Below are positions 9,898 through 60,580 of a stretch of DNA of 64,000 nt, piece by piece. The position numbers were made by a program, and so were the translations under genes. The DNA comes from an uncultured virus (IMG/VR IMGVR_UViG_3300025121_000017). Taxonomy: Duplodnaviria > Heunggongvirae > Uroviricota > Caudoviricetes. The DNA lies in the IMG/VR virus record IMGVR_UViG_3300025121_000017. One strand, written 5' to 3'. The notes under the pieces were generated by a model, which had not been told where the DNA came from, made no database searches, and saw only the letters and a program-made list of their open reading frames with translations. Position 1 is the stretch's first letter, and every line of letters begins with the position of its first letter.

Positions 9898-9965
9898 GAT
9901 GTTACGCACAGGAGGCCCAACTTAGTCCTTGCTACCCTACGCAAATATATGCTAATGTGTGTTCC

Positions 9966-11320: not shown

Positions 11321-11430
11321 AACGTCTGTGGAGGGATCAGTGCACTGGGCTGACCCTGAGAAGCAGGAATTGAAGCGTGCTCATATGGTTGGGCACGTGG
11401 AGAGTAGCAGGGCTTCCTCGTGCAGCGCGT
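11291..11430 (+). ncRNA. TnpB omegaRNA 1; scaffold ends 11410, guide GGCTTCCTCGTGCAGCGCGT
   Basis: Hairpins GTCCCG..CGGGAC and GTGCTCA..TGGGCAC; similarity to the other copies stops at GTAGCAG; 5' end uncertain. Confidence 0.75.
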
Positions 11431-11574
11431 GCTGGACACCGGAGAAGGCGCGCGGGACTCGTTGGTCAAGCTCGTAGGCGAGCTGGCGAGGCTTGACCGG
11501 GGTGAGACGGAAGGGCTGACTGCGGTTATCCCGTGCGCGCCGACGACAAGAAGAGCATAATCTTCGTTGAATAA

Positions 11575-16531: not shown

Positions 16532-16689
16532 GATAGGCGAAAGATGATGCATTTAGCTTTACTCCACGGCGGTCCTCTCGGGCTGTGCATCGCAGACATT
16601 GCACTGCTCGTGCAGCTGAGCAGCGCGACGCTACCCTACATCGCTCATTTCATCGCAGGACTGGTGCTCCTGCTCCGAAAGGTGCTCGC

Positions 16690-17187
16690 GTGATTCTGCC
16701 AATCATCAAACCGCCGGATCCGATCCTCTCTCGCGAAGCCGTCCCGGTACTTCCGGGTCAGGACATCTCCGCTCTCATCCGGGACATGATCGACACTCTG
16801 CGCGCCTCCCCGGGCGGCGTGGGGCTTGCTGCGCCGCAGGTGGGGCACAAGCTACGCGTCATTGTTGTCGACCCGACTGGAGGGCGAGAGCCTGCTCGTG
16901 TAATGATCAACCCAGAGATCGTGACGACGTGGGGCGGTGGCATAGCTGAAGCGGAAATGTGCCTTTCATTACCCCTGATTCGGCACACCGTCGAGCGCGC
17001 ATCTTTCGTCACGGTGCGGTATACTGATGCTGAGCACCAGCTCGTTGAGCGAGACTGCTCCGTTTGGGAATCTCGCATCGTTCAACACGAGGTCGACCAC
17101 CTGAATGGGCGAACCCTGCTCATGCACATGAAACCCATGGCGCGAGCTCGCGCGCTCGAGACGATCCGCCTCGGCAGGAAGGTGTAA
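16690..17187 (+). CDS. def: Peptide deformylase
   Basis: GVGLAAPQVG, EMCLSLP, QHEVDHLNG signature motifs. Confidence 0.95.
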   Translation: MILPIIKPPDPILSREAVPVLPGQDISALIRDMIDTLRASPGGVGLAAPQVGHKLRVIVVDPTGGREPARVMINPEIVTTWGGGIAEAEMCLSLPLIRHTVERASFVTVRYTDAEHQLVERDCSVWESRIVQHEVDHLNGRTLLMHMKPMARARALETIRLGRKV

Positions 17188-17920: not shown

Positions 17921-20788
17921 GTGTCCGACGAAAAGCAGAAGTTTGTTACCCTCGGAGAGGGTGAGGACCGCCACGTCGTGCCGGTCGGGCCGGACGGTAA
18001 ACTACGCGGCGATCCTCCGCCGCACATCGCCGCACTGATCCACGCTGGGACGAAGGACCCCGCAAAGAAAGCCGCGTGGGCTGAGAAGTTGGAAAAGCCC
18101 GCTGCGGACCACTCCGCTCACCGGGAAGCCGTACTCAAGCACCTCGAGTCTTCCAAGACTGCCACCGCACACGAGGCCGACATCGGCGGGAAGAAGGTGA
18201 AGCTCACCCCCGGCGAGATGCGCTTGACGCAGGCTGCCGGTGTGCACGCACGCCCGTGGATCGCGTCAAGCGAGTGTGTTCCGGACGTGCATGTCCGAGA
18301 GTCCTTCACGCGGGAGCAAGGCAGCCGGTCTGGGCGAGGGCGCACGAATTGGACGCTGCAAGAGCGTGCGCCGGAAGAAGCACAAAAGCCGGCCGCTGAC
18401 CCCCGCGTCACGTCCGCTGTCGAGGCAGAGTCCGGCGTGAGATTCGGGCGGCGCAACGTGGCCAGAGCAGAGGAGCAGCTCACTGCACGTAAAGCCGATG
18501 CGGATAGGCTCGCGACTGTGCTCGCCGGAGCCAAGGGCACGCACCTGGAAAGCGGGCACAAGCACCCGCACAAGATGGCGCTGGCCATGGTCGCCGCCGC
18601 TGCGAGAGAACTGGACGATGAGCGTGCCAAGCTCGAGGATACGTTGGCATCCAAGACGCGTATGCACTCGGCTATCTTTCGGGGCAAGGACCGGGGCGAA
18701 GAGATCGTCCGGCAGGCTCGGGAGATTAAGGACCCGGCGGAACGGGAGAAATTCTTGAGGGACGCGAGGGAGAGGAGCGGCAGCTCTGGCGTGGAGGAAG
18801 CGGTGGATGCGGAGCTTGCGCAGAGCGGCACGGCTATGCCAGCCCCAAGCGCATTCTCCTCCGCCGGTATCAAAGACCTCCAGGAGCTGTCCGAGACCAT
18901 CCAGGCCCGCGGCAAGCGGCACGGCCCCTCTACAGCTCGAGACGTAGCAGAATCCAACACGGACGCCGTCGATGACGCCCTCGCCGACATCCACAAAGAC
19001 GCACGCCGTCAGGGCGTTGACCCGCACGCCTTTACCGCGCATCACCTGGGCGAACACGGCCCCGTGCTGGCGAAACACTACCCGGATAAGTTCCCAGGGA
19101 TCGCACCTGCCAGCGACTCGGCCCCGGCGGCAAAGCCTCCCGCCCCGGTGGACCACAAGGTCTCGAGCATGGACGCCTCGAAGCTTGCCGAGCACCATGC
19201 CGCGCTGCTCGAGGAACAGCGCAAGCTGACACAACGAGAGCGCCTCGGAACCGCAAAGGCGAGCGACCGCGACAGACAAGCTCAGCTGGTCCACGAGATA
19301 GCAGACGCTGGAGGCGAAAAACACCGACGGGCGAAAGAAGCTGTGCAGACCGCGGAACGGGCTGCGCACGCCAAGGATGCGCAAGAAAAGCAGCGGTGGG
19401 GCTCCCTGTCCGAGGCGGAGCGCCAGGCCATTGTGAGCGCTGGCGGGACACGGTCTGACTGGAGAACGCGTGAGCAGCGCCGCCACGATGATAACGCGTC
19501 CTACCTCTCAAAAGAGCTGGAACGCCAGCAGGCCAGGATGGATCGGACGAAGGATCCGGAGAGTCGAGCGGAGTACGCGCCAGGGCTGGAGCAGGCGAGA
19601 CAGGATGCGCAGAGTCACTTGAGCAAGCCGCGTCCGGAGGCGCCGGCTGAGATTCATGCGGCGCAACAGCGGCACCCGGGGAGTGTGCCGGACCACGAGG
19701 CGGCGCTGCGCGCGATTCGGGAGAAGCATGGGCTGGGGAGTGCGCCGGACGACTGGCACACGTTCGCGGCGAAGCACCCCGACGTCGCTGGTCAAATCTC
19801 CGACGTGCTCCAGGGACATCCTCAACGCAAGGTGCAGATGAGCCTTATGGCCCGCGCCCACCAAAAGCACGGGGAGGAGCAGAAAGAGTGGGACAAGCTG
19901 GTCACTCGGACGCCTTTCGAACATAAAACGTTCCGAGCGCCTACCACAACGAAGTCCGCCGTTGATCTCCACGGTGCCGCATACGGAGGCCTCGTCGCGC
20001 ATAAAGACGACGCGGGCGACTGGGCCGTGTCGCATCTGGGATCGGGGTTGCGGCTCAATCAAGCGCCGCTCGAGTCGGAGCAGACAGCGAAGCGTGGATT
20101 ACTCGCGGCGCACGGGTTGGCTGCGCGCGACGCGCAATCGTCGGTGGACTGGACAAAGGCGAACGTCACTAAAGAGCCTGGGTTCAAGCGCGTGGCGCAG
20201 GACATTGAGGCGTCGGTGCACGCGCCGAGTGACTGGGCGCACTATGCGGCGAATGAGGGGCTGCACTGGGGGAATCGAGGGGGCGCTGCCGACGTGCTTA
20301 AGCGTGGGCAGGACGCCGCACCTGCCGCACCTGCCGCACCTAGTCCGGCAGAAGCCTATCACGCAGCCGACGAGGCGTGGTACAAGGCCAACGCCCGCCA
20401 TCGGAAGCGCTTTCAGCTTGACGACCGGTCCCATAACACGCTCGCAGGAACGCATGGGCATAAAGAGTCGGAGGCGAAGGTACACGCGTTAGCGCAACAC
20501 GCAGAGGCCCTGCGGGAGAAGGCCGGTATCCCGAGCCCCTACTACGCCAATACTGCGCATCGTGCGACGGCTGAGCTGGCCCCACGCGTAGAGCGCAAGC
20601 TGGACGAGAAAGCGAGAGACGCCCGGAAGCACGCAGAGACACTCGCGAAGATGATCAAAGAATATGGCGCGGGAAATTCTGGCGGAAAGGCTGCCCACGA
20701 GATTGAGTCAGACTTTGGCGTGAGCGCCAGGCTTAGGACGAAGTTCCCGGACCTGTTCGCCGCGGAACCGCACTCTAGCTCCCAATAA
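17921..20788 (+). CDS. Large modular protein, paralogous at the N-terminus to 43340-45163
   Basis: 955 aa; AGGAGG RBS; N-terminus DEKQKFVTLGEGEDRHVVPVGPDGKL.. shared with the 43340 protein. Confidence 0.75.
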   Translation: MSDEKQKFVTLGEGEDRHVVPVGPDGKLRGDPPPHIAALIHAGTKDPAKKAAWAEKLEKPAADHSAHREAVLKHLESSKTATAHEADIGGKKVKLTPGEMRLTQAAGVHARPWIASSECVPDVHVRESFTREQGSRSGRGRTNWTLQERAPEEAQKPAADPRVTSAVEAESGVRFGRRNVARAEEQLTARKADADRLATVLAGAKGTHLESGHKHPHKMALAMVAAAARELDDERAKLEDTLASKTRMHSAIFRGKDRGEEIVRQAREIKDPAEREKFLRDARERSGSSGVEEAVDAELAQSGTAMPAPSAFSSAGIKDLQELSETIQARGKRHGPSTARDVAESNTDAVDDALADIHKDARRQGVDPHAFTAHHLGEHGPVLAKHYPDKFPGIAPASDSAPAAKPPAPVDHKVSSMDASKLAEHHAALLEEQRKLTQRERLGTAKASDRDRQAQLVHEIADAGGEKHRRAKEAVQTAERAAHAKDAQEKQRWGSLSEAERQAIVSAGGTRSDWRTREQRRHDDNASYLSKELERQQARMDRTKDPESRAEYAPGLEQARQDAQSHLSKPRPEAPAEIHAAQQRHPGSVPDHEAALRAIREKHGLGSAPDDWHTFAAKHPDVAGQISDVLQGHPQRKVQMSLMARAHQKHGEEQKEWDKLVTRTPFEHKTFRAPTTTKSAVDLHGAAYGGLVAHKDDAGDWAVSHLGSGLRLNQAPLESEQTAKRGLLAAHGLAARDAQSSVDWTKANVTKEPGFKRVAQDIEASVHAPSDWAHYAANEGLHWGNRGGAADVLKRGQDAAPAAPAAPSPAEAYHAADEAWYKANARHRKRFQLDDRSHNTLAGTHGHKESEAKVHALAQHAEALREKAGIPSPYYANTAHRATAELAPRVERKLDEKARDARKHAETLAKMIKEYGAGNSGGKAAHEIESDFGVSARLRTKFPDLFAAEPHSSSQ

Positions 20789-22056
20789 TATACACATTTG
20801 TCCGCAAACACTGGTATAATGCATACATCCCAATCGTCCGAGGTATCCCCCAGCATGCATCGCGCCCACAAAATCCGCCTCAACCCGGCCCCCGATCAGG
20901 AGGTCTACTTCCGCAAGGCCTGCGGCACGGCTCGTTTCGCCTTCAACTGGGGGCGTGCCAGGTGGGAGGAAGCGTACAAGGCTGGGAATAAGCCATCCGC
21001 TCTCGGACTGAAGAAAGCGTTCAACGCCTTCAAAAAGGATCTCCCCTGGATCTATGAAGTGACTAAATGCGCAGCAGAGGGAGCATTCACTGACCTGGGC
21101 AGTGCTTTCTCCAACTTCTTCCGGGAAGCCAACTCCGGCAAAGTCGGCTATCCTAAGTTCAAGTCAAAGCACAAAAGTAAACCCGCATTCTATCTCTCGA
21201 ACGATGCTTTCTCTGTTAACGCACACACCCTCCGCATCCCCAAGCTCGGCCCGGTCAACATGACCGAATCGCTCCGCTTTACAGGCAAGATCCTGTCCGG
21301 ACGGATTAGCTTTAAGGCTGGCTACTGGTGGATATCGATCCAGGTTGAGTTACCTGATCCCGTCCCCGTTCCCAGCACAGGGCCAGCCATCGGCATCGAT
21401 CTTGGCCTGAAAGAACTGGCGGTCTGCTCGGACGGAAGACGTTTCCCGAATCCGAGGCACCTTCAGGCTGGTCTGAGGAAATTACGATCTCTGTCCCGTT
21501 CTCTGAGTAGGAAGGTCAAAGGCAGCGCAAACTGGCTGAAAGCCAAGGCTAAGCTCGCGCGTGTCCATTATCGGATCGCCTGCAAGCGATCCGATGCGAT
21601 CCATAAGATGACGACGGAGCTTGCACGTACGGCAAGCCTGATCGGTCTGGAAGATCTCAATGTTCGCGGCATGCTCCAGCACAGGAAACTGGCCCGATCC
21701 ATCTCGGATGCAGTCTGGGGAGAGGCCAAACGTCAGCTCGGCTATAAAGCTCCCGATCGGATCGTGGAGATCGACCGCTGGTTTCCCTCGAGCAGACTGT
21801 GTAGGTTCTGCGGGACGATCAACGATCAGCTTACGCTGGCGGATCGGACATGGACTTGTGTCTGCGGAGTGAAACACGATCGTGATTGGAACGCCTCGAT
21901 CAACATCAGGGATGAAGCGATCCGAATTTTGAGTCAAGTCCCGGTGATGGCTATGTCGGGACTTTAATGCGCCTGTGGAGGGATCAGTGCTCGAGGCTGC
22001 CCCGATGAAGCAGGAATTGAAGCATACTTACTTTTTGAGTATGTAGAGAGTAGCAG
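20779..22056 (+). mobile_element. TnpB-only IS607-type cassette, copy 2
   Basis: No tnpA; extended -10 TGGTATAAT (20812-20820); right end GAGAGTAGCAG; left junction inferred after CTAG (20775-20778). Confidence 0.7.
20855..21967 (+). CDS. tnpB: RNA-guided endonuclease TnpB, copy 2
   Basis: GIDLG, LEDL, CxxC/CxC, DRDWNA intact. Confidence 0.95.
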   Translation: MHRAHKIRLNPAPDQEVYFRKACGTARFAFNWGRARWEEAYKAGNKPSALGLKKAFNAFKKDLPWIYEVTKCAAEGAFTDLGSAFSNFFREANSGKVGYPKFKSKHKSKPAFYLSNDAFSVNAHTLRIPKLGPVNMTESLRFTGKILSGRISFKAGYWWISIQVELPDPVPVPSTGPAIGIDLGLKELAVCSDGRRFPNPRHLQAGLRKLRSLSRSLSRKVKGSANWLKAKAKLARVHYRIACKRSDAIHKMTTELARTASLIGLEDLNVRGMLQHRKLARSISDAVWGEAKRQLGYKAPDRIVEIDRWFPSSRLCRFCGTINDQLTLADRTWTCVCGVKHDRDWNASINIRDEAIRILSQVPVMAMSGL

Positions 22057-22076
22057 ATGACGCCGGAAGAGTACGT
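21938..22076 (+). ncRNA. TnpB omegaRNA 2; scaffold ends 22056, guide ATGACGCCGGAAGAGTACGT
   Basis: Conserved scaffold; terminal hairpin CATACTTA..TGAGTATG has compensatory changes relative to copies 1 and 3. Confidence 0.75.
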
Positions 22077-22326
22077 TAGCCACAAGCGAGACGTTTCGCA
22101 GCGTGCACACGAACACCAGGTCCGCCGCGCCGAAGCCGGGGAGCTTCACGGGGGCGACTGGACGGAATACCGTCCGTACAAATCACGCGCAGACGCTCTG
22201 CGGCAAATACGCCCAGAAGCACTGGACGAAAAGGCCATCCGACGCGAGCACATGGAGCACGTTAACCGAGCTCGTGTTCAGGGGAGATCACTCCGTCCGG
22301 AGGTTGCCCAGGCATACGGGCTGTAA
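22057..22326 (+). CDS. Small protein resembling a module of the giant proteins
   Basis: MTPEEY..H..HV..A..G...PEV..Y resembles HRxxV..G..V.PDV.xDYP modules. Confidence 0.6.
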   Translation: MTPEEYVSHKRDVSQRAHEHQVRRAEAGELHGGDWTEYRPYKSRADALRQIRPEALDEKAIRREHMEHVNRARVQGRSLRPEVAQAYGL

Positions 22327-34959: not shown

Positions 34960-37479
34960 GTGAGCGACGATCGCAGCGAAATCAAAATTGTAGCGGAGCT
35001 CGACGCCGCGCAAGTCGCTCGTACGATCGAGGCCGGGAATCGTGCGGCTGCGCAGAGTGTTGCGTCCGGAGCTGCTGGCGGGCGTGGAAGGAAGGGGAGT
35101 CGGGCGGAACAGGCGGAAGCGCCGGTACCGCTCATTTCCCGCTATGCGCCGCGGGCTAGAACTGCGGCTGGGCGTACAATAGACGCTGAAGAAAATTGGG
35201 AGCTTCCCTGGGAGGGCGAAGGGGGTTTAGGGGCGCCTGCAGCTGTCACACCTCGTGGCGCGCCGCCGATAGTGGACCCTGAAAAAGAAGCGGCATTACT
35301 CAAAGCACAGCATAAGTATTGGAACCCCACACTCTGGAAGATGGTGTGGACCGAAGATGCTGGCAAGCCTCCTGAGCCCCAAGAACCCGTTGCGCCGCGA
35401 ATTAACAGAGGGGAGCAGGGGTACCATACCGCCAATCCAATGGCGGATAACGCGCAAGGCAGAGGAGAGAAACAAGGCGACGCACCAAAAATAGAAGGCG
35501 AAAAAGAACAGGCATGGCTTCGTGCGGCGAGTGTGTATCATGCACGATCGTATGCCCCTGCGTCCGCCGCGTCTGACGGAGAGGGAGAAGACGAGTCCGG
35601 CCCGTCTTACGTCCCTCACCGTCCAGGCGCGCGCTGGCGCCTCAATGCCTTCGGTGCCACTGCCTTCCGCGCCGGGCTGGCCCCTATCGCTGTCGGCATG
35701 CACTTCGGCTTAGCCGCCGCCTTGAGCCCGTTCCGAATCGCAGCCGCTGCACGGCAGGCGGGCGGGTTTGGCAACCTGAGCGTGGCCGACGCCTCCTCAG
35801 CCGCGTTCGGTGACGTCCGCCGTAATCTCGGCACGCAAGCTGACCTCATCGGGCAGGGAGCCTCACAGACCGTCTCGCGGCAGCGCGTCAAAACTTCCGA
35901 TGATGACGAGGGGGACGGCGAAGACGACGCCAACCCAGAAGAGCGCCGCCATCGCGAGATGATGAGCGCGATGAAGAAGTACGGCGGACAGGGTGCCAAC
36001 CTGACGCGTAACGTCGCGATGGGGGCCGTCGGATACGGGATCGGCTCCAGCATCATGGGCTTCTTTTCAGAGGCCTCCCAGCAGTACATCCAGCACGCTG
36101 CGACGCTTCGCCAGCTCAAGCAGACCTATCGAGAATTTGGGGCAGAGGCAACGAGTGTCGGACGCAGCATCGGCTACGTGACTGAGGAGACGTCGAAGCT
36201 TGTCGGGGCGATCGGCACGCAAACGAACAGTGTCACGAGCACCAGGTTCATGCAGTATGCGGGGTTTGCGCGGCAGTACGGGCTCGAGGATACCGAAGTC
36301 GCAGGTACAGTTGGTAAGATCAGCCGATTGTCCGGCGGGCACTTCTTCCAGGCGTCCGAGGGACAGCTGAGCTCTGCGCAGCGTCAGCTGGGCATGACGC
36401 GCGCGCAGGCGCAGCGGCAGAGCTCGTCAATCTCACTCCTGGGGATTCACGCGGCGGCTGAGGCGTCCGGCATGGGCCAGGGCCGTTTCGGTGAGTACAT
36501 GCAGACACTCTCCTCTGCGGCGGAAGCGCAATTCCACGCGACAGGAGAGGTCAACTCAGGCGCGATGTTCGCGACGAAGTTCGGCGGCATGGTGTTTGGG
36601 CAGGACTCGGAGCGCGGGCGCGGTGAGTCTGGGCTCAGCTTCGCGCAAGGCGCGGGACGGATGATGTCCGGCGACAGCTCGCAAGCCATGCGCGTCTACA
36701 TGATGCGCGCGCTGAATTATGGCAAGGCCGGCGGGCCTGGCATGATCGAGATGGACAAGCAGCTCGAGGCCGGCATCACGGACCCCAAGAACGCTGCGGC
36801 TTTCTTCGGACGGATCCGGCAGACGACGTCTGGCATGTCCGCAGAGAACCGGAAGTTCACCGCCTACATGATGCTGAAAGACGACGCAAAAAAGAGCGGG
36901 TTGAACGCATCGGGGCTCGAGGCACTGGTGGACGCGGGGTTCGACGACGCCAAATTCGCCCAGATGCAAGAGTTTGCGGAGGACCCTGACAAGGCCATGG
37001 AGGCGAATTTTAGCGCAGAGGGGCTGAACAAGGGGGCGTTTAAGGCGGGTGGGTTCGGTGAGGTGGGGCGGCGCAAGACAACGTTGGCGGAAGCGCGGAA
37101 GGTGCAGCTCGAGTCAATGAAAGAGGGGGTTGGCGCCGAAGTCACCGGGATCATGGTGACGCTCGGCAACACCATGAAGAACCTTGGTGGCGCTTTTAGC
37201 GATCTCTTCAAAGGCATCTCCGGGCAGCGACCGTTGCAAGCGTTGCAAGGCCTCGCGACATCCGCCGAACGCGCGTCCGAGACTCTTGAAATGCTCTCCG
37301 CTACGTCTGCCGGACAGTACGCGACGAAAGGCGTCACGGGTGTCCTGGGTGAGTTCTGGGACGAGTTCGGCGTCCGCCGGATGTGGAACGCGCAGCACCC
37401 GACGACAGGCACGATCCGCACGCGAAAAAATCCCGCTAAACACCCGCCCACTGCCGGTGCTGGGGGCGGTAACCGATGA
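34960..37479 (+). CDS. Tape measure protein
   Basis: 839-aa Ala/Gly/Met-rich helical protein after the chaperones. Confidence 0.7.
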   Translation: MSDDRSEIKIVAELDAAQVARTIEAGNRAAAQSVASGAAGGRGRKGSRAEQAEAPVPLISRYAPRARTAAGRTIDAEENWELPWEGEGGLGAPAAVTPRGAPPIVDPEKEAALLKAQHKYWNPTLWKMVWTEDAGKPPEPQEPVAPRINRGEQGYHTANPMADNAQGRGEKQGDAPKIEGEKEQAWLRAASVYHARSYAPASAASDGEGEDESGPSYVPHRPGARWRLNAFGATAFRAGLAPIAVGMHFGLAAALSPFRIAAAARQAGGFGNLSVADASSAAFGDVRRNLGTQADLIGQGASQTVSRQRVKTSDDDEGDGEDDANPEERRHREMMSAMKKYGGQGANLTRNVAMGAVGYGIGSSIMGFFSEASQQYIQHAATLRQLKQTYREFGAEATSVGRSIGYVTEETSKLVGAIGTQTNSVTSTRFMQYAGFARQYGLEDTEVAGTVGKISRLSGGHFFQASEGQLSSAQRQLGMTRAQAQRQSSSISLLGIHAAAEASGMGQGRFGEYMQTLSSAAEAQFHATGEVNSGAMFATKFGGMVFGQDSERGRGESGLSFAQGAGRMMSGDSSQAMRVYMMRALNYGKAGGPGMIEMDKQLEAGITDPKNAAAFFGRIRQTTSGMSAENRKFTAYMMLKDDAKKSGLNASGLEALVDAGFDDAKFAQMQEFAEDPDKAMEANFSAEGLNKGAFKAGGFGEVGRRKTTLAEARKVQLESMKEGVGAEVTGIMVTLGNTMKNLGGAFSDLFKGISGQRPLQALQGLATSAERASETLEMLSATSAGQYATKGVTGVLGEFWDEFGVRRMWNAQHPTTGTIRTRKNPAKHPPTAGAGGGNR

Positions 37480-39023
37480 CAATGCGCGCCGAACACTCCG
37501 GCACCACCTTCGAGTCCGGAGCCCCCCACGTCACCGTCTGGACAGGCTTCGACGGACTCCGCAAGATGGAGATCGGTGGGGACGGTCTGCGCCTCAGCAC
37601 GTCGAAATCGATCAGCGGCACGACGGGCCAGTTTACCCTCGAGCTGCTCCCTCGAGACGGCATTGGACTGACTGAGAAGGCTATTCGCTCCGGCGCGGAG
37701 CGACTACCGCTGTACCTGTCCGCCATTGCGCCCAACACGCCGATCTCGATCGGATTCGAGCGAGAGGGCGGCGTCATGCTGGGGCTGGTGCGGTCCTGCG
37801 ATTGGACGACATTCGCGGTCGGCGACAAGCTCCAGGACGGCATCACGATCACAGGCACTGACTTCGGGCACATGCTCGACGACCACATCTTGCAGATGCA
37901 GGTCTCGACGGCGGACCATGCACGCTGGACGGAAGCGATCAAATCGGTGTTGGGGCCAGACGCGCCGATTCTCAAAGAGCTGGTCGGCGCGGAAGGGCCG
38001 GTGAACGCAGCGGGGGAGCGGTCGCTCGAGGGTGTGACGGTGCAGGCGGTGGCGGAATACTGCCTCAAGCGTGTAGCTGGAATGCGTGTGCCGGTGCTGC
38101 GTCAGGCCTTCGGCGGACGCGGCTACATCGGCGACTTCACCGAAGTCCGGGCGAGCTCATTCGACGGGGACCTGGTGTACAAGACGGGACTCTTCACGCA
38201 GGAGACAACCGTCTCGGGCTATCTACAGGAGATCCTCGACAAGGACTTCTACGAGTTTCGCATGGACACCCTGCCTCCGGACGCGGCCAAGGGACGCAAC
38301 GTCGCGCGTCCGGTGCTGGTGATCCGTCCGAAGCCTTTCGACGAGGAAGCGTTCCAGAACGTTTCGCTGTGGCCACCCACGCCGCGCACTTCGGTGTCCT
38401 CCTGGGAGCGGCTCACCACTATGCTGGACAAAGACCGGCACCACCAGGTCGACCGAGGCCATGTCGTGGGACAGGTGCGGCTCGGGCGCAGCCGTGACGA
38501 GGCCTTCAGCTTTTACACTGTGCAGAATAACAACGAGCTGGGCTTCACCAGCTCTAACGCCTCGAGCGGCGCAGCGTTCCCGCTCTACGACCTGTACAAC
38601 GGCACCCGGTTCATCACGCAGCGTTACGACAGCCGCTGCTCCCAGGTGGCGGCGGACCCGAAGAAGAAATCGTTTGAGTCACTCATCGGGCAGTCGCTGG
38701 GCGTCAGGCGCAACCGCCTGCACTGCTGGTACCGCGCCAATCCGGACTTTGTCACTGGGTCGCTTCGCGTCCGTGGCAAGGACAGTTATCGAGTTGGGGA
38801 CCCGGTGTGGATCCCGTGGCTGCCGGATCCGCTGACGGGCAGGCCTGGCATCCGCGCCTATTGCACCGCAGTGAACCATGAGTGGTCGTTCGGCGGAGGG
38901 TACGCTTGCACGCTTAGTTTGAGCCGTGGCCATGGTCCGGGATTTTGGGAGCAGCATGTTAGACAAGTTAAATCTGCGATGCCACTGTCACTACTCAAAG
39001 GTTGGGTAAGCGCCGATAGATAG
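37476..39023 (+). CDS. Putative baseplate hub protein; last 23 codons supplied by the TnpB cassette
   Basis: TSKSI...GQFTLEL, ITITGTDFG, C-terminal GSLRVRG..YRVGD..Y.TAVNHEW..L.RG hub pattern. Confidence 0.7.
   Translation: MTMRAEHSGTTFESGAPHVTVWTGFDGLRKMEIGGDGLRLSTSKSISGTTGQFTLELLPRDGIGLTEKAIRSGAERLPLYLSAIAPNTPISIGFEREGGVMLGLVRSCDWTTFAVGDKLQDGITITGTDFGHMLDDHILQMQVSTADHARWTEAIKSVLGPDAPILKELVGAEGPVNAAGERSLEGVTVQAVAEYCLKRVAGMRVPVLRQAFGGRGYIGDFTEVRASSFDGDLVYKTGLFTQETTVSGYLQEILDKDFYEFRMDTLPPDAAKGRNVARPVLVIRPKPFDEEAFQNVSLWPPTPRTSVSSWERLTTMLDKDRHHQVDRGHVVGQVRLGRSRDEAFSFYTVQNNNELGFTSSNASSGAAFPLYDLYNGTRFITQRYDSRCSQVAADPKKKSFESLIGQSLGVRRNRLHCWYRANPDFVTGSLRVRGKDSYRVGDPVWIPWLPDPLTGRPGIRAYCTAVNHEWSFGGGYACTLSLSRGHGPGFWEQHVRQVKSAMPLSLLKGWVSADR
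38952..39023 (+). repeat. Recoded direct repeat, copy A (translated): QHVRQVKSAMPLSLLKGWVSADR*
   Basis: Codon-by-codon alignment with 40309-40380: 23/72 nt differ, 22/23 aa identical. Confidence 0.95.
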
Positions 39024-39101
39024 CATTCACTGCGCAGAAACGCATGCAGCTATGCCCCATATTTGCTATAATACAAGTCCACTGTCGGAGTATTTATTCG
39101 C

Positions 39102-40217
39102 ATGATCCGCGCCCACAAAATCCGCCTCAACCCAACCCCCGATCAGGAGGTCTACTTCCGCAAGGCGTGCGGCTGCTCCCGCCTTGCGTTCAACTGGATG
39201 CTGGCGGAGTGGAAACGGGTGTATGAGTCCGGAGAGAAGCCAAATGCGCTGCGCATGACGAAAGCCTTTCGATCCGTGAAGGGTGAGATCTTTCCGTTCA
39301 TGGCGGAAGTGACGAAGTGCGTGGTGGATGGAGCGAAGATCGATATTGGGTCCGCCTTCTCCAACTTCTTCCGGGAGGCCAAGTCCGGCAAGATCGGCTA
39401 CCCCAAGTTCAAGTCTAAGCATAAGAGCAAGCCGTCCTTCTACCTGGCGAATGACAAGTTTTCAGTCGACAAACATATTCTGCACGTTCCCAAGCTCGGC
39501 CCCGTCAACATGACTGAACCTCTCCGCTTTGCCGGAAAGATCCTCTCCGGACGGGTCAGCTTCAAGTCGGGCTACTGGTGGGTATCGATCCAGGTTGAGA
39601 TGCTCGGTCTGCCTGCAACCTTTCGCACGGGTCCAGCGATTGGCGTCGACCTGGGCCTGAAAGAATTGGCAGTCTGCTCGGACGGGAGACGTTTCCCGAA
39701 CCCGAGGCACCTCCAGGCTGGCATAAGGAAGATAAGATCCCTATCTCGAGCGCTTGCGCGGAAGATCAAAGGCAGCGCGAACTGGCTGAAAGCCAAGGCC
39801 AAGCTCGCGCGCGCCCATTATCGAATCGCCTGCAGGAGATCCGATGCGATCCATAAGATGACGACTGAGCTTGCACGAGGGGCAAGCCTGATCGGGTTGG
39901 AAGACTTGAACGTCAAAGGCATGCTCCAGAACAGGAGACTGGCCCGGTCTATCTCGGATGCCGTCTGGGGTGAGATCAAACGTCAGCTCCTCTATAAAGC
40001 ACCTGATCGGGTCGTGCAGATCGATCGGTGGTTCCCCTCGAGCCGGCGCTGCAGGCTCTGCGGTACGATCAACGCGGATCTTACGCTGGCGGATCGGGCC
40101 TGGGTGTGCGCTTGCGGGGTGGAACATGATCGCGATTTGAACGCCTCGATCAATATCAGGGATGAAACGATTCGTTTAATGCAACTGGTCCCGGTGATGG
40201 CTATGTCGGGACTTTAA
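39102..40217 (+). CDS. tnpB: RNA-guided endonuclease TnpB, copy 3
   Basis: GVDLG, LEDL, CxxC/CxC, DRDLNA intact. Confidence 0.95.
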   Translation: MIRAHKIRLNPTPDQEVYFRKACGCSRLAFNWMLAEWKRVYESGEKPNALRMTKAFRSVKGEIFPFMAEVTKCVVDGAKIDIGSAFSNFFREAKSGKIGYPKFKSKHKSKPSFYLANDKFSVDKHILHVPKLGPVNMTEPLRFAGKILSGRVSFKSGYWWVSIQVEMLGLPATFRTGPAIGVDLGLKELAVCSDGRRFPNPRHLQAGIRKIRSLSRALARKIKGSANWLKAKAKLARAHYRIACRRSDAIHKMTTELARGASLIGLEDLNVKGMLQNRRLARSISDAVWGEIKRQLLYKAPDRVVQIDRWFPSSRRCRLCGTINADLTLADRAWVCACGVEHDRDLNASINIRDETIRLMQLVPVMAMSGL

Positions 40218-40328
40218 ACACGCCTGTGGAGGGATCGGTGCACTGGGCCGGCTCGAGGAAGCAGGAATTGAAGCGTGCACATATGCTTGGGCACGCGGAG
40301 AGTAGCAGCAACACGTGAGGCAGGTCAA
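40188..40328 (+). ncRNA. TnpB omegaRNA 3; scaffold ends 40308, guide CAACACGTGAGGCAGGTCAA
   Basis: Conserved scaffold and hairpins as in copies 1 and 2. Confidence 0.75.
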
Positions 40329-40380
40329 GGCTGCGATGCCGCTATCGCTGCTGAAGGGCTGGGTTTCAGCGGACAGATGA
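40309..40380 (+). repeat. Direct repeat, copy B (presumed original gene end and guide source): QHVRQVKAAMPLSLLKGWVSADR*
   Basis: Starts exactly at the scaffold/guide boundary and ends at TGA. Confidence 0.95.
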
Positions 40381-40828
40381 CGCCAGCGGGCCACTTGCCG
40401 CCCGCGAGACTCAGGATAAACCCAGGCGAGTCGGCTTCAATGCGCAAGAACACAGCGAGCTGCCGCGCAGTCTGCTTTGAAGGACTGGTCTGGCCTTTGA
40501 TCAGCTGGGTAATTGCGCTGGGGGAAATCTGCATCGCGTTTGCGAGCTTCGCGCGTGTCAGCCCGAAAATATCGAGCAGGTACTTGAGCTGATTGCCCAG
40601 GACAACGCCCTGAGTCTCGAGCACCCAGTCGCAGAACAGGCGGGCCTGAGCGCGGGAGATGCGTTCGGCTTCGCCGGGCTTGAGCGCGCGGTACTTTTCT
40701 GAGTCGAGGATCTCGACCGTACACTCGTCGACCCCAAGCGGCGTGTTTAGAACGAAGTCGTCAATGATCCTCCAGCGTAAGGCTGAAACTGGCACGGCGA
40801 CAAATTCCTCTGAATGGTCTATACTCAT
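40325..40828 (-). CDS. XRE-family HTH regulator (antitoxin-like architecture)
   Basis: LKYLLDIFGLTRAKLANAMQISPSAITQLIKGQTSPS; GGAG before ATG 40828. Confidence 0.75.
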   Translation of the reverse strand: MSIDHSEEFVAVPVSALRWRIIDDFVLNTPLGVDECTVEILDSEKYRALKPGEAERISRAQARLFCDWVLETQGVVLGNQLKYLLDIFGLTRAKLANAMQISPSAITQLIKGQTSPSKQTARQLAVFLRIEADSPGFILSLAGGKWPAGVICPLKPSPSAAIAASQP

Positions 40829-40914
40829 AGCGGACTCCACGTGGCGTGCAACAGCAGTTAAGTAGCTTAAATTATGCGCGAGCGAGTCAACTACGTCAAC
40901 TCTTTTGGTGAGCC

Positions 40915-41613
40915 TTGGACGACCGCGGACACGAATCAGGCATCCCTTACAGCTCCCGCGGCGGCTACGCAGGCCCTCAGGCCGGCTACCTCGAGCGCCG
41001 CGGTGACGGCGTGTACCTGGTCGTGCGCGGCGGCGGGAACACCGTCGTGCCCTACGGCCCGGGGACGTTCCTCGTGGCCAGGCCCTACGGGACCAACATA
41101 GAGCCGCGCGCCGGCACACGAGACACCGCCGGACACTGGACCATTGAGCCTGAGCCGGTGCTGGTCGACTATGTGACGGGGTACGCGGGGAAGCCGATCG
41201 TCATCGGTACCTGTCGTGTGCTCGAAGATGACACGCTGGACAGCCCGAGCGACCCGGATCGCGTGGCGGCGCGGTTCACTGCGTTGAGCCGCCCGCCCGG
41301 GACAGAGCTGGGGAGTGTGCTGGTCGAGCTGTGCGCCAACGGGACCGGGGATATAACCATCACAGCCACTGGAAACGTCACGCTGAACGCGTCCGGCATG
41401 GTTCACCTGGGCGGCGACCCTGCAGATGACTTTGTAGCGCTGGCAACGTCGGTACGGGCAGAGGTTACGACCTTGCGCGACTATGTCGCGACGTTAGTGC
41501 TCCCCGTGGCCACGACGGGTACAGCTGCAGCGCAGACGGGTACGGCAGGCCCACCGGCTGTACCCCCCGCAGTGGTGGGGAGCGTGGCGGCTAGCAAAGT
41601 GAAGGCTACCTGA
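40915..41613 (+). CDS. Putative baseplate spike/assembly (gpV-like) protein
   Basis: PVLVDYV.G..GKPIVIG OB-like motif, beta-repeat ITITATGNVTLNA, VHLGG; start uncertain. Confidence 0.6.
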   Translation: MDDRGHESGIPYSSRGGYAGPQAGYLERRGDGVYLVVRGGGNTVVPYGPGTFLVARPYGTNIEPRAGTRDTAGHWTIEPEPVLVDYVTGYAGKPIVIGTCRVLEDDTLDSPSDPDRVAARFTALSRPPGTELGSVLVELCANGTGDITITATGNVTLNASGMVHLGGDPADDFVALATSVRAEVTTLRDYVATLVLPVATTGTAAAQTGTAGPPAVPPAVVGSVAASKVKAT

Positions 41614-53025: not shown

Positions 53026-54552
53026 CTAGACTGATGCGTAGAAAGCCAGTTGTCGCTTACGGGGCATGGCTGCGACTGGGTCTGCGCAGATATCGTTGCC
53101 TCCCGCCCACAGAATCGCGCGTCGGATGTAGCGGTCCCAAGCCTCAAAGCCCGGAAAGGGTGCCGGGTAGATGGACGCGTCCTGTCCGTAAAGAATATAG
53201 GATCGCAGAAGGGTCAGCGCGAAGAAGAGGATCGGACCGCGGATGACAGGCATAGCTAGTCGTTCGAACATCTCGTCTTCGCCGCCTTGCCCTGGGTACT
53301 TCGTTCCTCTTTTTGCGGGAACCATCTGTGTATAAAGTGCAGTTGCCCCGACGGCGGGCAACGCCAGCAAGTGCTCTTCGAGTCCGGTAATCACCACCTT
53401 CCGCTCTGCCTGCTGCAGTAAGTTGATCACACTTGTGTCTGCCGCGTGAGCTCCGTCGAGCAGAAACGTCCTCATGTCGCCGAAAGGATCGTACTTGAGG
53501 TAGGCGCTCATTTCAGCTCGCAAGTTCTCAGGCGTCTCGCGCAAGAAAGGTGCTCCGCACGGGATCCCCATTGCTGCCACGTACGGCACTTGTGCGCAGA
53601 GTGACTTGCCGCTCGGGGACGGTCCCCCGATAACGGTAGCCGGGGATTGAAACCCGAGCCCCGGTCCAGCGATGTGCTCGAGCACCTGCGCCACGAGGTA
53701 ATCGTGCGCAGTGTCCGCTGTCATCGACGTGTAGACGAAGCGAGGCAATGCCGCGCGAAGATGGTCTAGTGCAGTATAGGCATCCGTGCGCGTACAGGCT
53801 TGGACAGGCGCGATGTGCGGTGCGATTTCTTTGATGTCCAGGTAGAAGGCAGAGGCCGCGTCGTAGCCATGTGCGGCAATGACCCGGCCAGCGGAGTCGA
53901 TGGTAGGGTGGCGTAGCACCGAATCGATGCGGCGGATGCCGTGGGTAGGGTCACGCTGGATCTGCCGTATAAGGGGCGCGGGGAGCGGATAAACATCCCA
54001 CGGAGCGGGAGGGCCGGAAGAGCGCGACTTGGCGAGGCATGCGACGTCCAGGACCGCGTTGCTGATCTCAGCTGGCCCTGCATCGTACAAACGAGGGCGG
54101 GAGGTATCGCACAGCTGGGTGTAGACAACCCTCCCGTGCTTGACGAACAGCCCATCGGACCCCGCGAGCAAACCTTGGACTTCTCGGCTCAGTTCGCCAA
54201 CTCGCCCCGGGGAGTAGACAAGATTGGGTCTAATCGGGAGGGACGCTACGTACTCAAGGAATGCCGCGACGTCCGGCGTGAGTTTACGGGGGCGACACTT
54301 CTTCGGCTTCGGCGTGAAGCCGGGCAGCTTGACCTCTCGCACTCCTTTCCCGCTGTTGCACGGCTGGCAGGCGGTGATCAGGTTGGCAAGCGTAGATGCC
54401 CCGCCTCGCGCAACGGCGAGGATATGGTCCACGTGCAGCACCACGTCCGGGGCGGACGCCCCGCAGTAGCGACATGTGAAGTTGTCGCGGGATAGGATCT
54501 CGAAGCGCAAGGTGCGCGAAATCGGTTCGCGCTCGTGGTGACGGCGGCGCAT
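53026..54552 (-). CDS. HNH endonuclease fused to a degenerate primase/helicase-like P-loop region
   Basis: LRFEILSRDNFTCRYCG..LHVDHI..GG...NLITACQPCNSGKG; later GYD..Y, GPSPSGKS, FEAWDRYIR..ILW. Confidence 0.75.
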   Translation of the reverse strand: MRRRHHEREPISRTLRFEILSRDNFTCRYCGASAPDVVLHVDHILAVARGGASTLANLITACQPCNSGKGVREVKLPGFTPKPKKCRPRKLTPDVAAFLEYVASLPIRPNLVYSPGRVGELSREVQGLLAGSDGLFVKHGRVVYTQLCDTSRPRLYDAGPAEISNAVLDVACLAKSRSSGPPAPWDVYPLPAPLIRQIQRDPTHGIRRIDSVLRHPTIDSAGRVIAAHGYDAASAFYLDIKEIAPHIAPVQACTRTDAYTALDHLRAALPRFVYTSMTADTAHDYLVAQVLEHIAGPGLGFQSPATVIGGPSPSGKSLCAQVPYVAAMGIPCGAPFLRETPENLRAEMSAYLKYDPFGDMRTFLLDGAHAADTSVINLLQQAERKVVITGLEEHLLALPAVGATALYTQMVPAKRGTKYPGQGGEDEMFERLAMPVIRGPILFFALTLLRSYILYGQDASIYPAPFPGFEAWDRYIRRAILWAGGNDICADPVAAMPRKRQLAFYASV

Positions 54553-57698: not shown

Positions 57699-59621
57699 AT
57701 GTCCCAACTCACCTCCTCCGGCCTAAAATACAAAGCCAGCACCACCACCAACCTCAAGCTCGGCCACGACGAGCTCTCCTGGCTCCAATACGAAAATGAC
57801 GAACGCATCCGCCTGGACCGCCTCGGCACCTTCGCCCGGACCGGCCTCGTCATCAACCGTCGCTCCGGTGGCCAACTCGAAGACGACTGGATCGTCGCCG
57901 AAGACGGCAGCAACGCCGGCTACCTGGTCCTGGGCACAAGCTCCCTCGGGCAGCAGGTCGCCGTCGACCCGGACGGCTACGTGCTCCGCGTCTCCGGGCA
58001 GCACCGCCCCTACACACTGGTCCCGCCGAAGACGCTCTCCCTCGTCGTCCCCAACGATGGCACCTGGCGCACGCTCGTCATGCGCCGCGCCACGACAGCC
58101 TACGAGCCGGGCACGCTGGCGTTTACGAACGCGAACGCTGGGCTTGTCGGCACCAGCACCACCCTGACGCGCTACGCGGGCTCTGGCGAGGGCGGAGCGC
58201 ACGGAACCTACGTCAAGATCGACCCCGCGGACCAGGCGACGCTGGGAGCCTCCGACGGCGGGCAGGGTGCGGGTGTCTGGGAGCTCCTGAGTGTCGCCTC
58301 GGACACCGGCGCGACGATGGGACGCAACGCCACTGCCACGGCGTCCGGCGTGCCGTTCTCGATCGCGGGGAGCTATCACGCAGCGGAGCCGGCGTCGAGC
58401 GTCCGGGACGTGCACCTCAGGCCTGCTATTACGTTCGAGCTAGTCACACGGACGAGACTGCCTTCGAATGATGACATCGTGCTGGCGGACGTGCAGCGGT
58501 CCGGCGGGGTAATGGCGATTATCGACAGGCGGGAGTGTAGCCTGGCGTATGGGAAGAAGGGGGAGGGGGTGCAAGGGGCAGAGGCGGCTCCGGTGCTTCA
58601 GATAGCGGAGGCCGGTGGGCTGTCCATTGTGTCTACCGTCGTTTTCGAGTCCGACGCAGCGACACCCCTAGCCTTCTCGATGGCTGAGACAGACGATCAG
58701 CAGATTCTGTGCGTCCGCGCAAAGGCCACGATCGTAGCGTGTCGGCTCTACAACCCGCGCTCTGGCGTTCTCGGGACGCTGACCACGATCGCCACCACGA
58801 CCGCCACGTCCGGGGCTTCAATCCTTCGCGTACCGGTGAGCGACGGCACGTACCGGCACCTGTGCTTCTACGACGACCAGGACGTGATCTACTTCAAGGC
58901 GAGCACGGACAGCGGCGCAACCTGGGGGGCTGCCACGACGGTGTGGGACGTGAGCGCCGTCGCTGGCCCGCCGACGCTGCGGCAGCCGTTTGCGCTCCTG
59001 CTACGGAGCCACCGGCTCGCGGTGATGGCTGCATATGATGATGGGACATCGGTCGCGAAAGTCGTGGTGTCGGACACGTACGGGGCGAGCTGGTCCACCA
59101 ATTCGAATGAGGGGTGGGCTGTGACTTCGGTTGCGGCGATCAGCGAACCTGCGATGGTGCAGGACCCGGTGACGGGTTGGGTGTGGGTGTCGGTTGAGTA
59201 TAACGACCTGATCCAAACAATCGCAGTGACACCTGTTTTAGACGAAACGTTGACGGGGGAGGTAACCGCTGTTGGCGTGGCTTTAGCCAAAGACGCTGAT
59301 AATAGCTCGCAGTCTGGCCCTGGAGCGATGTTTCTGAATGAAGCAGGTCAGATCGCTGTATTCTACGGAGAGTATGACAGCGGGAACACAGATACGTTTC
59401 TTCACGCGGCGCGCGTCGGCGCGGAAGACCTAGGAGGGGCTGCGGTGGACGCTCGGCAGTACACCAATAGGCGCTTTCGCATATTATACACAGAAACAGA
59501 TCAGAAAAAACCACACGCGTGCACGCTGACCACACGAGACGGCGGTCGCTGGCTTGGCTATTTTGATGCGGTGGGTGCGGCGAACTTCACTGGAGAACTT
59601 ATGCCGATACTGTTACGCTGA
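57699..59621 (+). CDS. Tail appendage/receptor-binding-like protein with Asp-box (BNR) beta-propeller
   Basis: STDSGATW and SDTYGASW Asp boxes; IVLADV....IIDRR N-terminal tail motif; TGCTACAAT promoter and GAGGT RBS. Confidence 0.65.
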   Translation: MSQLTSSGLKYKASTTTNLKLGHDELSWLQYENDERIRLDRLGTFARTGLVINRRSGGQLEDDWIVAEDGSNAGYLVLGTSSLGQQVAVDPDGYVLRVSGQHRPYTLVPPKTLSLVVPNDGTWRTLVMRRATTAYEPGTLAFTNANAGLVGTSTTLTRYAGSGEGGAHGTYVKIDPADQATLGASDGGQGAGVWELLSVASDTGATMGRNATATASGVPFSIAGSYHAAEPASSVRDVHLRPAITFELVTRTRLPSNDDIVLADVQRSGGVMAIIDRRECSLAYGKKGEGVQGAEAAPVLQIAEAGGLSIVSTVVFESDAATPLAFSMAETDDQQILCVRAKATIVACRLYNPRSGVLGTLTTIATTTATSGASILRVPVSDGTYRHLCFYDDQDVIYFKASTDSGATWGAATTVWDVSAVAGPPTLRQPFALLLRSHRLAVMAAYDDGTSVAKVVVSDTYGASWSTNSNEGWAVTSVAAISEPAMVQDPVTGWVWVSVEYNDLIQTIAVTPVLDETLTGEVTAVGVALAKDADNSSQSGPGAMFLNEAGQIAVFYGEYDSGNTDTFLHAARVGAEDLGGAAVDARQYTNRRFRILYTETDQKKPHACTLTTRDGGRWLGYFDAVGAANFTGELMPILLR

Positions 59622-60514
59622 TACGTTTCCGCCAGATCCGGCGCTTCAGTCTGGAGATTTGCGTCGGTAGAGATGGGTATGCTTATGTCGCAATCCTCAT
59701 CCCTGATACTATCACAGTCGTTGTCGTCCCCATCGCATATCTCTGGGGCACCCGGATAGGTATCAGCCCCGCTATACCCAGGATCATCTCGGTCGTTACA
59801 GTCGCCATTGGCGATAGAATACCCGTCCCCGTCAGCGTCATCAGTGTCCATGTAGTCCTCGTCAATCGACCCATCACAGTCATTATCTATGCCGTCTCCG
59901 ATTTCGTTAGCACCTGGGTACACGTAGAAAGAATAGTCGTTGCAGTCGCCGTCTTCCTCGGTTTGCCCGTCTCCGTCATCGTCCGTGTAAATCGTGTGAT
60001 TGTCGATCTGCCAATCGCAATCGTTGTCGATACCATCCACCGGATCCCCCACACCTGGATGTATCTCCGGATCTTGGTCGTTACAATCCGTCTTCACGCG
60101 CGAGTATCCAAGCGGAGGATCGCACGACTTAACCGTCACTGTGGTCAGTTCACTCCCGTACGTGTCCGCGTCCGCGTCGATGTAGTAGAGGTAGTAATCC
60201 CCGCCCACATCCGTCCCGCCGTCGCAGTTATCGTCCACATCGTTACAGATCTCATCCGCCCCCGGATTGACGTCCGCGTCCGCGTCATCGCAGTCGTACT
60301 TGCTCGAGTATCCGTCCCCGTCCGCGTCCTCCGCCCCAGATGTGTCGTCGCCGTCGCCGTCCCCGGGCGCCACAGTAGGCTCAGGCGTGCCGTCCCCGGG
60401 AACGGAGGACGGGTCTCCGTCGTCGTCATCCTCATAGTCCTCTCCGCTACATCCACCCGCGGTGAGTGTCAGCAACATAGCGATAATAAGTCCAAACCTG
60501 CGTGTCTGTGTCAT
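59558..60514 (-). CDS. Lipoprotein with repeated DxDGDG..DCxD..PGA.EICDG.DNDCD (MopE-like metal-binding) repeats
   Basis: Signal peptide ending AGGC; four Cys/Asp repeats. Confidence 0.8.
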   Translation of the reverse strand: MTQTRRFGLIIAMLLTLTAGGCSGEDYEDDDDGDPSSVPGDGTPEPTVAPGDGDGDDTSGAEDADGDGYSSKYDCDDADADVNPGADEICNDVDDNCDGGTDVGGDYYLYYIDADADTYGSELTTVTVKSCDPPLGYSRVKTDCNDQDPEIHPGVGDPVDGIDNDCDWQIDNHTIYTDDDGDGQTEEDGDCNDYSFYVYPGANEIGDGIDNDCDGSIDEDYMDTDDADGDGYSIANGDCNDRDDPGYSGADTYPGAPEICDGDDNDCDSIRDEDCDISIPISTDANLQTEAPDLAETYQRNSIGISSPVKFAAPTASK

Positions 60515-60580
60515 AAAGTGGCCCTGTCTGTACCAGTTGTTGTGCGTTGAATGCACCGGACGAGTCCGATGCTCTCGTTG

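Follow-up and report, generated by a model that had tools for sequence, protein, structure and literature searches.

A TnpB cassette in a phage baseplate-hub gene, flanked by two spellings of the same gene tail, as a candidate natural home-and-rescue element

The window of DNA considered here, a whole stretch of 64,000 nucleotides (nt) from an uncultured virus of the Caudoviricetes (IMG/VR record IMGVR_UViG_3300025121_000017), contains a gene for a baseplate hub whose 3' end is occupied by a cassette encoding a TnpB nuclease and a putative omegaRNA. The gene runs into the cassette and finishes there with a tail of 23 codons and a stop (copy A), and a second version of the same tail, almost identical in peptide and very different in spelling (copy B), begins immediately past the cassette's other end. 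We read the locus as a natural home-and-rescue homing cassette of the IS607 type, in which copy B would be the displaced original that supplies the guide and copy A a recoded substitute that keeps the hub gene working; we put the probability of this reading at about 0.6. The window covers part of a longer genome, that of a phage known only from metagenomes, and this hub protein has also been recorded from a contig 184,768 bases long.

The interrupted gene and its two tails

The interrupted gene is an open reading frame (ORF) of 515 amino acids (aa) on the plus strand (37476-39023), made up of a native body that extends to 38951 and of tail A, which would be cassette-borne. Its product matched no family in a Pfam scan; a PHROG comparison assigns it to the tail protein PHROG 1015 (E = 4.9e-11), and a baseplate-wedge homologue is encoded downstream (PHROG). 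An AlphaFold (AF2) model built on a nine-sequence alignment (predicted local distance difference test, pLDDT, 66; predicted template modelling score, pTM, 0.71) recovers with Foldseek the phi812 baseplate (2e-14), the Mu gp44 hub (1wru, 1e-9), VgrG chains and T4 gp27 (2e-5). At the level of the modelled fold this confirms a baseplate hub of the gp27/Mu gp44/VgrG type, and so bears out the 'putative baseplate hub' of an earlier interpretation made from the letters alone (hereafter the sequence-only reading). Baseplate hubs are essential, as is well established for T4 gp27 and Mu gp44. Because all nine full-length homologues (510-528 aa, 31-61 % identity) extend through the tail region, the last 23 residues are part of the hub protein; the five closest terminate in ...GWxSADR. 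The in-frame ORF falls within the length range of these homologues, and tail A is predicted to restore the gene. Another TnpB element is seen at this gene in a relative about 88 % identical (run X7), whose hub gene is immediately preceded by a TnpB right end (...AGTAGCA plus 3 nt; window 37476-37483); that insertion at the 5' end of the gene is a site distinct from the one at the 3' end described here.

Copy A (38952-39023, plus strand) is in frame with the hub ORF and closes it with TAG; copy B (40309-40380, plus strand) begins at the first base past the conserved right-end motif GAGAGTAGCAG, which ends at 40308, and closes with TGA. When recomputed, the two peptides are identical at 22 of 23 residues, while 23 of 72 bases and 20 of 24 codons are unlike, the very figures given in the sequence-only reading, whose coordinates and letters for both copies were also as it gave them. 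Nineteen of the 23 base differences fall at third codon positions, and the remainder consist of one Ser/Ala replacement, a switch between serine codon boxes (AGC vs TCA) and one change in the stop codon, at its second base. Searched against the window (tblastn), the tail peptide finds copy B at E = 4e-12 and its next match at E = 0.78; at the nucleotide level the longest identical run is 10 nt, and blastn-short returns this exact match only, no alignment being possible. A TAG closes the frame of copy B two codons upstream, so copy B is not translated as a fusion. The two copies start exactly where the element is bounded, one at the presumed target-adjacent motif (TAM) and the other at the conserved right end. 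Contigs from three of three sequencing runs (X1, X3 and X5; groundwater metagenomes from two studies) span both junctions with no differences, one of these runs possibly being the window's own source. Among the runs listed as containing the locus none was of RNA.

Several lines of evidence bear on which of the two tails belongs to the phage. The proportion of G+C at third codon positions (GC3) is 0.375 in copy A, 0.71 in copy B and 0.80 in the hub body, and when followed over the last 648 nt of the hub gene it falls abruptly in the final 72-nt block. The codon adaptation index (CAI), calculated from a codon table of 24 window genes and compared with 23-codon windows of those genes, is 0.331 for copy A, which lies under 2610 of 2610 comparison windows, and 0.560 for copy B, at the 10th percentile. 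The nearest cassette-free homologues (L041, 61 % identical; L042, 55 %) read TTC TGG GAG at the same place and continue into GC-rich tails with a TGA stop, like copy B. A contig from a relative about 89 % identical, record 30 of run X7, aligns with the window to the right of and including 40324 and does not extend into the right end; since it shares 40324 onward, the last 57 nt of copy B (40324-40380) are backbone, and this relative seems to be without this right end at this junction. Taken together, the foreign codon usage of copy A and the native-like usage of copy B indicate that B is probably the displaced native tail and that A arrived with the cassette.

The opposite assignment, that copy A is native and owes its codon usage to local signals, with copy B a leftover of an unrelated duplication or an assembly chimera, has in its favour that A is the copy that is translated and that local constraint could act on its AT-rich sequence, which closely precedes a promoter-like TGCTATAAT. 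We consider it very improbable, given a duplication bounded exactly by the TAM and the conserved right end, a CAI for copy A lower than every comparison window, the B-like tails of the cassette-free homologues, and the position of both junctions within long error-free contigs in three runs.

Copy B also overlaps a neighbouring gene. A convergent ORF outside the cassette (40325-41119, minus strand), which encodes a helix-turn-helix (HTH) regulator by its matches to Pfam HTH_3 and to PHROG transcriptional regulators, extends its 3' end over 56 nt of copy B, so that part of copy B may be under coding constraint from the opposite strand. The match with the relative in run X7 begins exactly at the stop of this ORF.

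How thoroughly copy A has been re-spelled can be judged from the degenerate codons that remain identical between the copies, of which there are two. Uniform recoding predicts 5.9 (P(<=2) = 0.03) and recoding under host codon usage predicts 8.0 (P(<=2) = 0.001). The two tails are at least as unlike as random re-spelling would make them, and possibly more so, although any excess beyond that is not robust. The synonymous sites have the look of saturation while 22 of 23 residues are unchanged; in the 61 % homologue, by comparison, the same tail is identical at about 10 of 23 residues. This combination suggests that copy A has long been constrained by what this hub lineage requires of its protein, and was not recently drawn from a random relative.

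The nuclease, its putative guide RNA and the edges of the cassette

The nuclease gene, tnpB (39102-40217, plus strand), is intact and encodes 371 aa with the Pfam domains HTH_OrfB_IS605, OrfB_IS605 and Cas12f1-like_TNB (E-values 2.7e-16, 2.6e-25 and 4.5e-16). It matches solved TnpBs at E = 7.6e-61, and the three RuvC acidic residues noted in the sequence-only reading are present as D183, E267 and D345, invariant in the TnpB alignment. Two more copies lie in the window: T1 (tnpB 10205-11320, right end 11410) and T2 (tnpB 20855-21967, right end 22056), whose proteins are 84 % and 76 % identical, respectively, to that of the copy in the hub gene (T3; right end 40308). In the contigs tnpB is covered 3-6 times as deeply as its flanks, so that the genome probably holds further copies of the gene, which the depth puts at 3-6 related ones.

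Downstream of each of the three genes is a conserved structured region ending in GAGAGTAGCAG, which at the hub locus would represent the 3' part of the omegaRNA scaffold (40188-40308, plus strand), defined by alignment and covariation. Within it are a RAGATH-18-like core (40223-40267) and a terminal hairpin (about 40273-40296) that covaries in T2; in an alignment of six copies, 7 of 21 predicted pairs have changed on both sides with pairing kept. These six copies (T1-T3 and the bacterial L052, L053 and L056) cease to be alike exactly after AGTAGCAG, at 40308 in T3. Because the likeness of six related copies ends there, the scaffold/guide boundary at 40308/40309, which had been placed at the same position from the letters, is well supported, as a boundary read from sequence comparison.

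The bacterial copies come from a single source. The closest bacterial TnpBs, 50-63 % identical, are found in one Chloroflexaceae metagenome-assembled genome (MAG), which holds several TnpA-less copies with the same right-end motif (L052-L054 and L056); this relationship hints at the lineage of the phage host. A 17-nt word of the scaffold gave 34 matches in viral contigs, all of them due to chance and none with a TnpB.

On the left, GGGAG (38947-38951, plus strand) directly precedes copy A and is the presumed TAM; it occupies the codons for the conserved Trp-Glu of a GFWE motif, and TGGGAG in the codons of that motif is also present in the cassette-free homologues. Published TAMs of IS607 TnpBs are AGGAG in 18 of 22 strains and GAGGG in 4 of 22, as given in PMC11061315. 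In the Chloroflexaceae copies L052-L054 the left flanks contain AGGAG, AGGAG and GGGAG, respectively, no more than about 25 nt upstream of where the copies become alike, and T1 has AGGAG (9914-9918) in its left flank, 48 nt upstream of its first ORF. A TAM of about GGAG had been suggested beforehand, and these motifs are consistent with it. The alternative left boundary, at 39024 after the stop of copy A, is preceded by GATAG, which is not TAM-like; since GGGAG precedes copy A and only GATAG precedes 39024, copy A would lie inside the element as the TAM defines it. Between copy A and tnpB is a left-end spacer (39024-39101, plus strand; 45 % G+C) that contains an extended -10-like TGCTATAAT at 39064-39072 and a GGAG ahead of the ATG of tnpB. 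At the place matching TGCTATAAT, T2 reads TGGTATAAT, and neither sequence was called by a scan for consensus promoters.

The surroundings of the other two copies have features of their own. T1's AGGAG joined to the first base of its right flank would read AGGAGG, eight bases before the GTG of a 46-codon ORF with high GC3 (11420-11560), and on this account the TAM of T1 would double as the ribosome-binding site of that ORF, from which the insertion separates it. T2 (20789-22056) begins directly after the TAA of a gene at 17921-20788, and on the right it runs straight up to the start codon (ATG) of an ORF of 89 codons (22057-22326). The GGGAG nearest to T2 ends at 20518, 270 nt upstream at a codon boundary, from where there are also 89 codons to the stop; the two 89-aa peptides flanking T2 are unrelated (score 28 vs a shuffle mean of 29.7).

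Among the 60 window ORFs scanned there was neither a resolvase nor a Y1 transposase domain, in agreement with the earlier statement that there is no tnpA, and the hub-gene cassette is a TnpA-less derivative of IS607 and not an autonomous IS607 element. Only T1 has an additional ORF of 80 aa (9966-10208) with a MerR/HTH_17 domain, located upstream of tnpB and overlapping its start, which resembles the N-terminal domain of the IS607 TnpA and is probably a TnpA remnant.

This ancestry admits a history without homing. An IS607 element, then still equipped with a serine recombinase, might have caught the hub tail by aberrant excision in an earlier phage and inserted at a GG-rich site; TnpB would merely linger or guard, and the recoding would be the donor's codon usage. 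The resulting topology is the same as that of e14 and icd-icdC as described in PMC13626634, and IS607 elements insert beside G-rich sequence, most members ending in GG, according to PMC13565253. The TnpA-like ORF of T1 points in the same direction, as do the left-end cores of T3 and T2, which begin right after a stop codon and would fit an earlier place just downstream of a gene, while the low GC3 of copy A fits a donor of lower GC content. The number of codon differences is ordinary under a model with AT bias like that of copy A itself (5.1 identical codons expected, P(<=2) = 0.077). The intact TnpB, with its RuvC triad and scaffold, and the 76-84 % identity of three copies argue for continued selection, however, and a tail taken from a random donor should show more protein differences than the single one that separates copies A and B. 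The passive history explains where copy A came from and not why the cassette persists, and is compatible with homing and rescue as their first step. As a complete account we think it unlikely; by analogy with e14 and icd, capture of the hub tail by aberrant excision is a plausible route to copy A.

Proposed homing and rescue, and what weighs against them

In the home-and-rescue reading, the cassette, immediately preceded by GGGAG as its TAM, would interrupt an essential hub gene 72 nt short of the stop, and its left end would replace the 23 displaced codons and leave the hub protein whole. In all TnpB elements known to us, the sequence after the scaffold is transcribed as the guide; the guide here would be the first 16-20 nt of copy B (presumed 20-nt guide, 40309-40328), and a cassette-free hub allele, in which GGGAG would be followed directly by the start of B, would be a valid target. 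On co-infection with a cassette-free relative, TnpB would cut at GGGAG and the native tail, and repair from the carrier, with the hub body as left homology and the native tail onward as right homology, would copy in the rescue tail together with the cassette. Genomes left unrepaired or misrepaired would lose an essential gene, and a TAM placed in the codons of a conserved Trp-Glu, combined with an essential target, would limit the emergence of resistant alleles, the principle behind engineered home-and-rescue drives. What the sequences and the hub model establish is the layout, with its two boundaries, the foreign codon usage of copy A, the intact nuclease and the fold of the hub; guide use, cleavage, homing and the origin of copy A we infer from it.

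The carrier itself is predicted to be immune. Compared with the presumed 20-nt guide, copy A has six mismatches, at positions 3, 6, 9, 12, 15 and 18, four of them within positions 1-13, the interval in which single mismatches abolish or strongly impair cutting by the ISFba1 TnpB, as reported in PMC11061315. Copy B in the carrier is preceded by AGCAG, one base from AGGAG and two from GGGAG, and no other site in the window resembles the guide 20-mer at three mismatches or fewer. With no identical run longer than 10 nt, the two tails would also be poor substrates for recombination that deletes the cassette. The sequence-only reading had proposed both that the recoded tail resists its own guide and that it is too divergent to loop the element out, and the mismatches and short identical runs agree with these proposals. 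Its structural interpretation likewise stands up (the boundary, the TAM-like motif, the native character of B and the mismatches), whereas its label does not: 'cleave-and-rescue' is less apt, because the rescue is carried within the drive at the very locus that would be cut, a home-and-rescue layout. The further proposition, that the cassette is a natural, long-lived, RNA-guided home-and-rescue gene drive between co-infecting phages, whose rescue has been selected to be maximally unlike its target and so escapes both the guide and deletion, we hold tentatively, at somewhat less than even odds.

The same anatomy would serve a weapon of exclusion, in which the guide would chiefly destroy the hub gene of related competitors during co-infection, the carrier phage would benefit, and the rescue would allow a guide to be aimed at the phage's own essential gene. 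Homing endonucleases are an established case of related viruses excluding one another by means of a nuclease, as set out in PMC13565253 and PMC5871332; there are several such cassettes in the genome, with tnpB at 3-6 times the depth of its flanks, and a TnpB right end abuts the start of the same gene in X7. Killing and homing are inseparable by sequence, however, because any genome repaired from the carrier gains the cassette, and no competitor allele with the target was found among metagenome contigs or in the search for hub fragments. We regard exclusion as the principal function as improbable, more so than the passive history.

Flanks of IS607-type TnpB loci were compared with each other in an ORF-based BLASTP screen of 154 of 171 sequences (151 from outside the window and three window controls), a comparison that the sequence-only reading had called for. 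It gave 13 rows at E <= 0.01, five of which, at E = 0.004-0.005, were left out of inspection, and yielded one weak look-alike, L083 (= L138), and nothing else similar among the 151 loci. In L083 the tail of the left gene and an ORF fragment past the presumed right end share 34 % identity over 76 aa (E = 6e-7), rising to about 75 % over the last 16 aa, and the locus is possibly a second, more diverged case of a replaced tail, judged from these flanks. It lies on a viral contig of 128,867 bases (the same locus as L138, L136 and L137; segments 1996-2295 and 3704-4075); in the left gene, of at least 764 aa, GC3 is 0.79 until about 300 nt from the stop and 0.33 thereafter, and the right ORF fragment is in frame from the presumed right end. 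No cassette-free relative of this gene was found in viral contigs.

The other flank matches were set aside. That of L162 consists of two tRNA-Thr genes of an array, those of L177 and L078 look like neighbouring paralogues, and that of L145 is a near-identical repeat of 33 nt set apart from the right end. The L145 repeats (210-242 and 2074-2106) are direct, 1864 nt apart and distinguished by one synonymous difference; each encodes the final 11 codons of an ORF together with its stop, and between them lie a TnpB cassette, which has a MerR-HTH ORF resembling that of T1, and about 450 nt more. In L177 the ORFs at 2081-2389 (103 aa) and about 3700-4027 (about 105 aa) flank the TnpB cassette, the right one starting at the right end, and their C-terminal ends are 61 % identical over 23 aa; they are probably tandem paralogues, and could be a whole-gene version of the same theme. 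An earlier translated screen of the flanks of 73 of 78 loci gave mostly low-complexity, out-of-frame noise.

A number of observations weigh against the home-and-rescue reading. The weak match of the scaffold to the Rfam RAGATH-18 family (24 bits, E = 0.039 in 521 nt), in itself a point in favour of the reading, lies under the gathering score of 44.9, and an Rfam scan of the window at gathering thresholds gave no match. The GGGAG of the hub locus differs from AGGAG at position -5, and for the ISFba1 TnpB every single TAM change abolished cutting, according to PMC11061315. The left edge of T2 is without a TAM-like (A/G)GGAG, and in both T1 and T2 the left and right flank peptides show no similarity, so that there is no rescue in either. 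Among the 151 loci of the flank screen L083 alone is at all similar, and therefore either the layout is rare or the screen is insensitive. The native status of copy B is argued from codon usage, backbone contiguity and the sharing of 40324 onward with the X7 relative, and no cassette-free allele close enough for base-by-base comparison was found in phage records, viral contigs or metagenome contigs. In those collections the phage records gave no match to the window phage, the viral contigs gave no relative of the hub protein, and the metagenome contigs gave distant hub relatives, 61 % identical at best, with the window's lineage absent; a search for short C-terminal hub fragments found none. 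The joint expected of a cassette-free genome, 38951 to 40309, was not among the 15 of 29 joints that were listed, in contigs that drop rare variants. Finally, the low number of shared codons is not significant under AT bias.

Elsewhere in the window are an ORF of 1679 aa with no Pfam match (62-5101), a DUF4942/methyltransferase protein (12150-13568), a peptide deformylase (16585-17187), a 508-aa HNH endonuclease protein (53026-54552) and a protein with three MopE-type metal-binding motifs (59558-60556).

Comparison with known systems

If the home-and-rescue reading is true, the locus would be a natural TnpB counterpart of an engineered drive plan, one that evolution reached first, and a recoded rescue would constitute a third natural route, beside introns and inteins, by which nucleases enter essential genes. 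The persistence and spread of TnpBs without a transposase in phage genomes would be accounted for as well. For the mismatch and TAM rules of IS607-type nucleases the locus offers a matched pair of sites, GGGAG followed by copy B, predicted to be sensitive, and GGGAG followed by copy A, predicted to be immune, and translated similarity between the left and right flanks of tnpB could be used as a screening rule for other genomes.

Engineered HomeR drives reportedly place a nuclease and guide in an essential gene, with a recoded 3' portion that restores the gene and resists the guide, the wild-type allele being the target. These are man-made, use Cas9 and operate in diploid insects, whereas the cassette described here occurs in nature, is built on TnpB and would work between the genomes of co-infecting phages; to our knowledge, drives with a recoded rescue have so far only been engineered. 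Phage 21 and prophage e14 both lie in the icd gene of E. coli, and e14 is the nearest natural parallel to the hub locus. With e14, as described in PMC13626634, the gene runs into the element, which provides a substitute 3' end, and the displaced icdC pseudogene remains on the far side; the hub locus has the same layout, in that the gene continues into the element and a native 3' fragment would lie beyond. The two differ in that e14 has an integrase and an att site and no RNA-guided nuclease at the displaced fragment, and its two copies are alike enough to recombine on excision; at the hub locus there is no recombinase among the 60 ORFs and no shared att core, the identical runs of copies A and B being at most 10 nt.

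The nuclease belongs with the IS607 TnpB/omegaRNA systems such as ISFba1 (PMC11061315), with which it shares the set of TnpB domains, the RuvC triad and (A/G)GGAG on the left. As in those systems, its guide would be taken from the DNA past the right end, and the putative scaffold lies downstream of tnpB and overlaps its 3' end, with the core CCUGUGGAG...GAAGCAGGAA. RNAs derived from RAGATH-18 are described as the guides of IS607-family TnpBs (PMC11061315, PMC13565253). The hub-gene cassette differs from ISFba1-type elements in having no serine recombinase TnpA, in its GGGAG in place of AGGAG, and in left ends that are not conserved between copies; in addition, it lies in a phage structural gene and carries a coding replacement for the segment that it displaces.

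A parallel to the proposed homing is the TnpB gene drive of IS605 elements in plasmids, in which, as PMC11870625 and PMC13565253 describe it, TnpB cuts the element-free site on another replicon and repair copies the element in, with no need for TnpA. Those elements are not in an essential gene and carry no rescue, and their homing has its counterpart here in a predicted process. A 2026 review defines 'transposon non-restorative homing' (PMC13565253), to which our proposal would add a rescue, and the arrangement of a rescue at the cut locus inside the drive is that of the home-and-rescue layout in PMC7968924. IStrons and the homing endonucleases of introns and inteins (PMC10690162, PMC13565253) are likewise selfish nucleases within essential genes that are left working; they restore the gene by RNA or protein splicing, whereas the hub gene would be restored by a recoded duplicate of its coding segment, with no splicing.

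The sequence-only reading had supposed that this architecture was undescribed for TnpB. For the combination this agrees with our search of the TnpB and IS607 literature, in which we did not find it described; for the substitute 3' end it does not hold, since that is familiar from e14 and icd. IS607 TnpB with its right-end element RNA (reRNA), TnpA-free homing of TnpB in plasmids, substitute 3' ends and engineered drives with a recoded rescue are all known already; what appears to be new is their union, in one well-formed instance, as a TnpA-less TnpB in an essential phage gene, with a re-spelled rescue on one side and the displaced original as its putative guide on the other.

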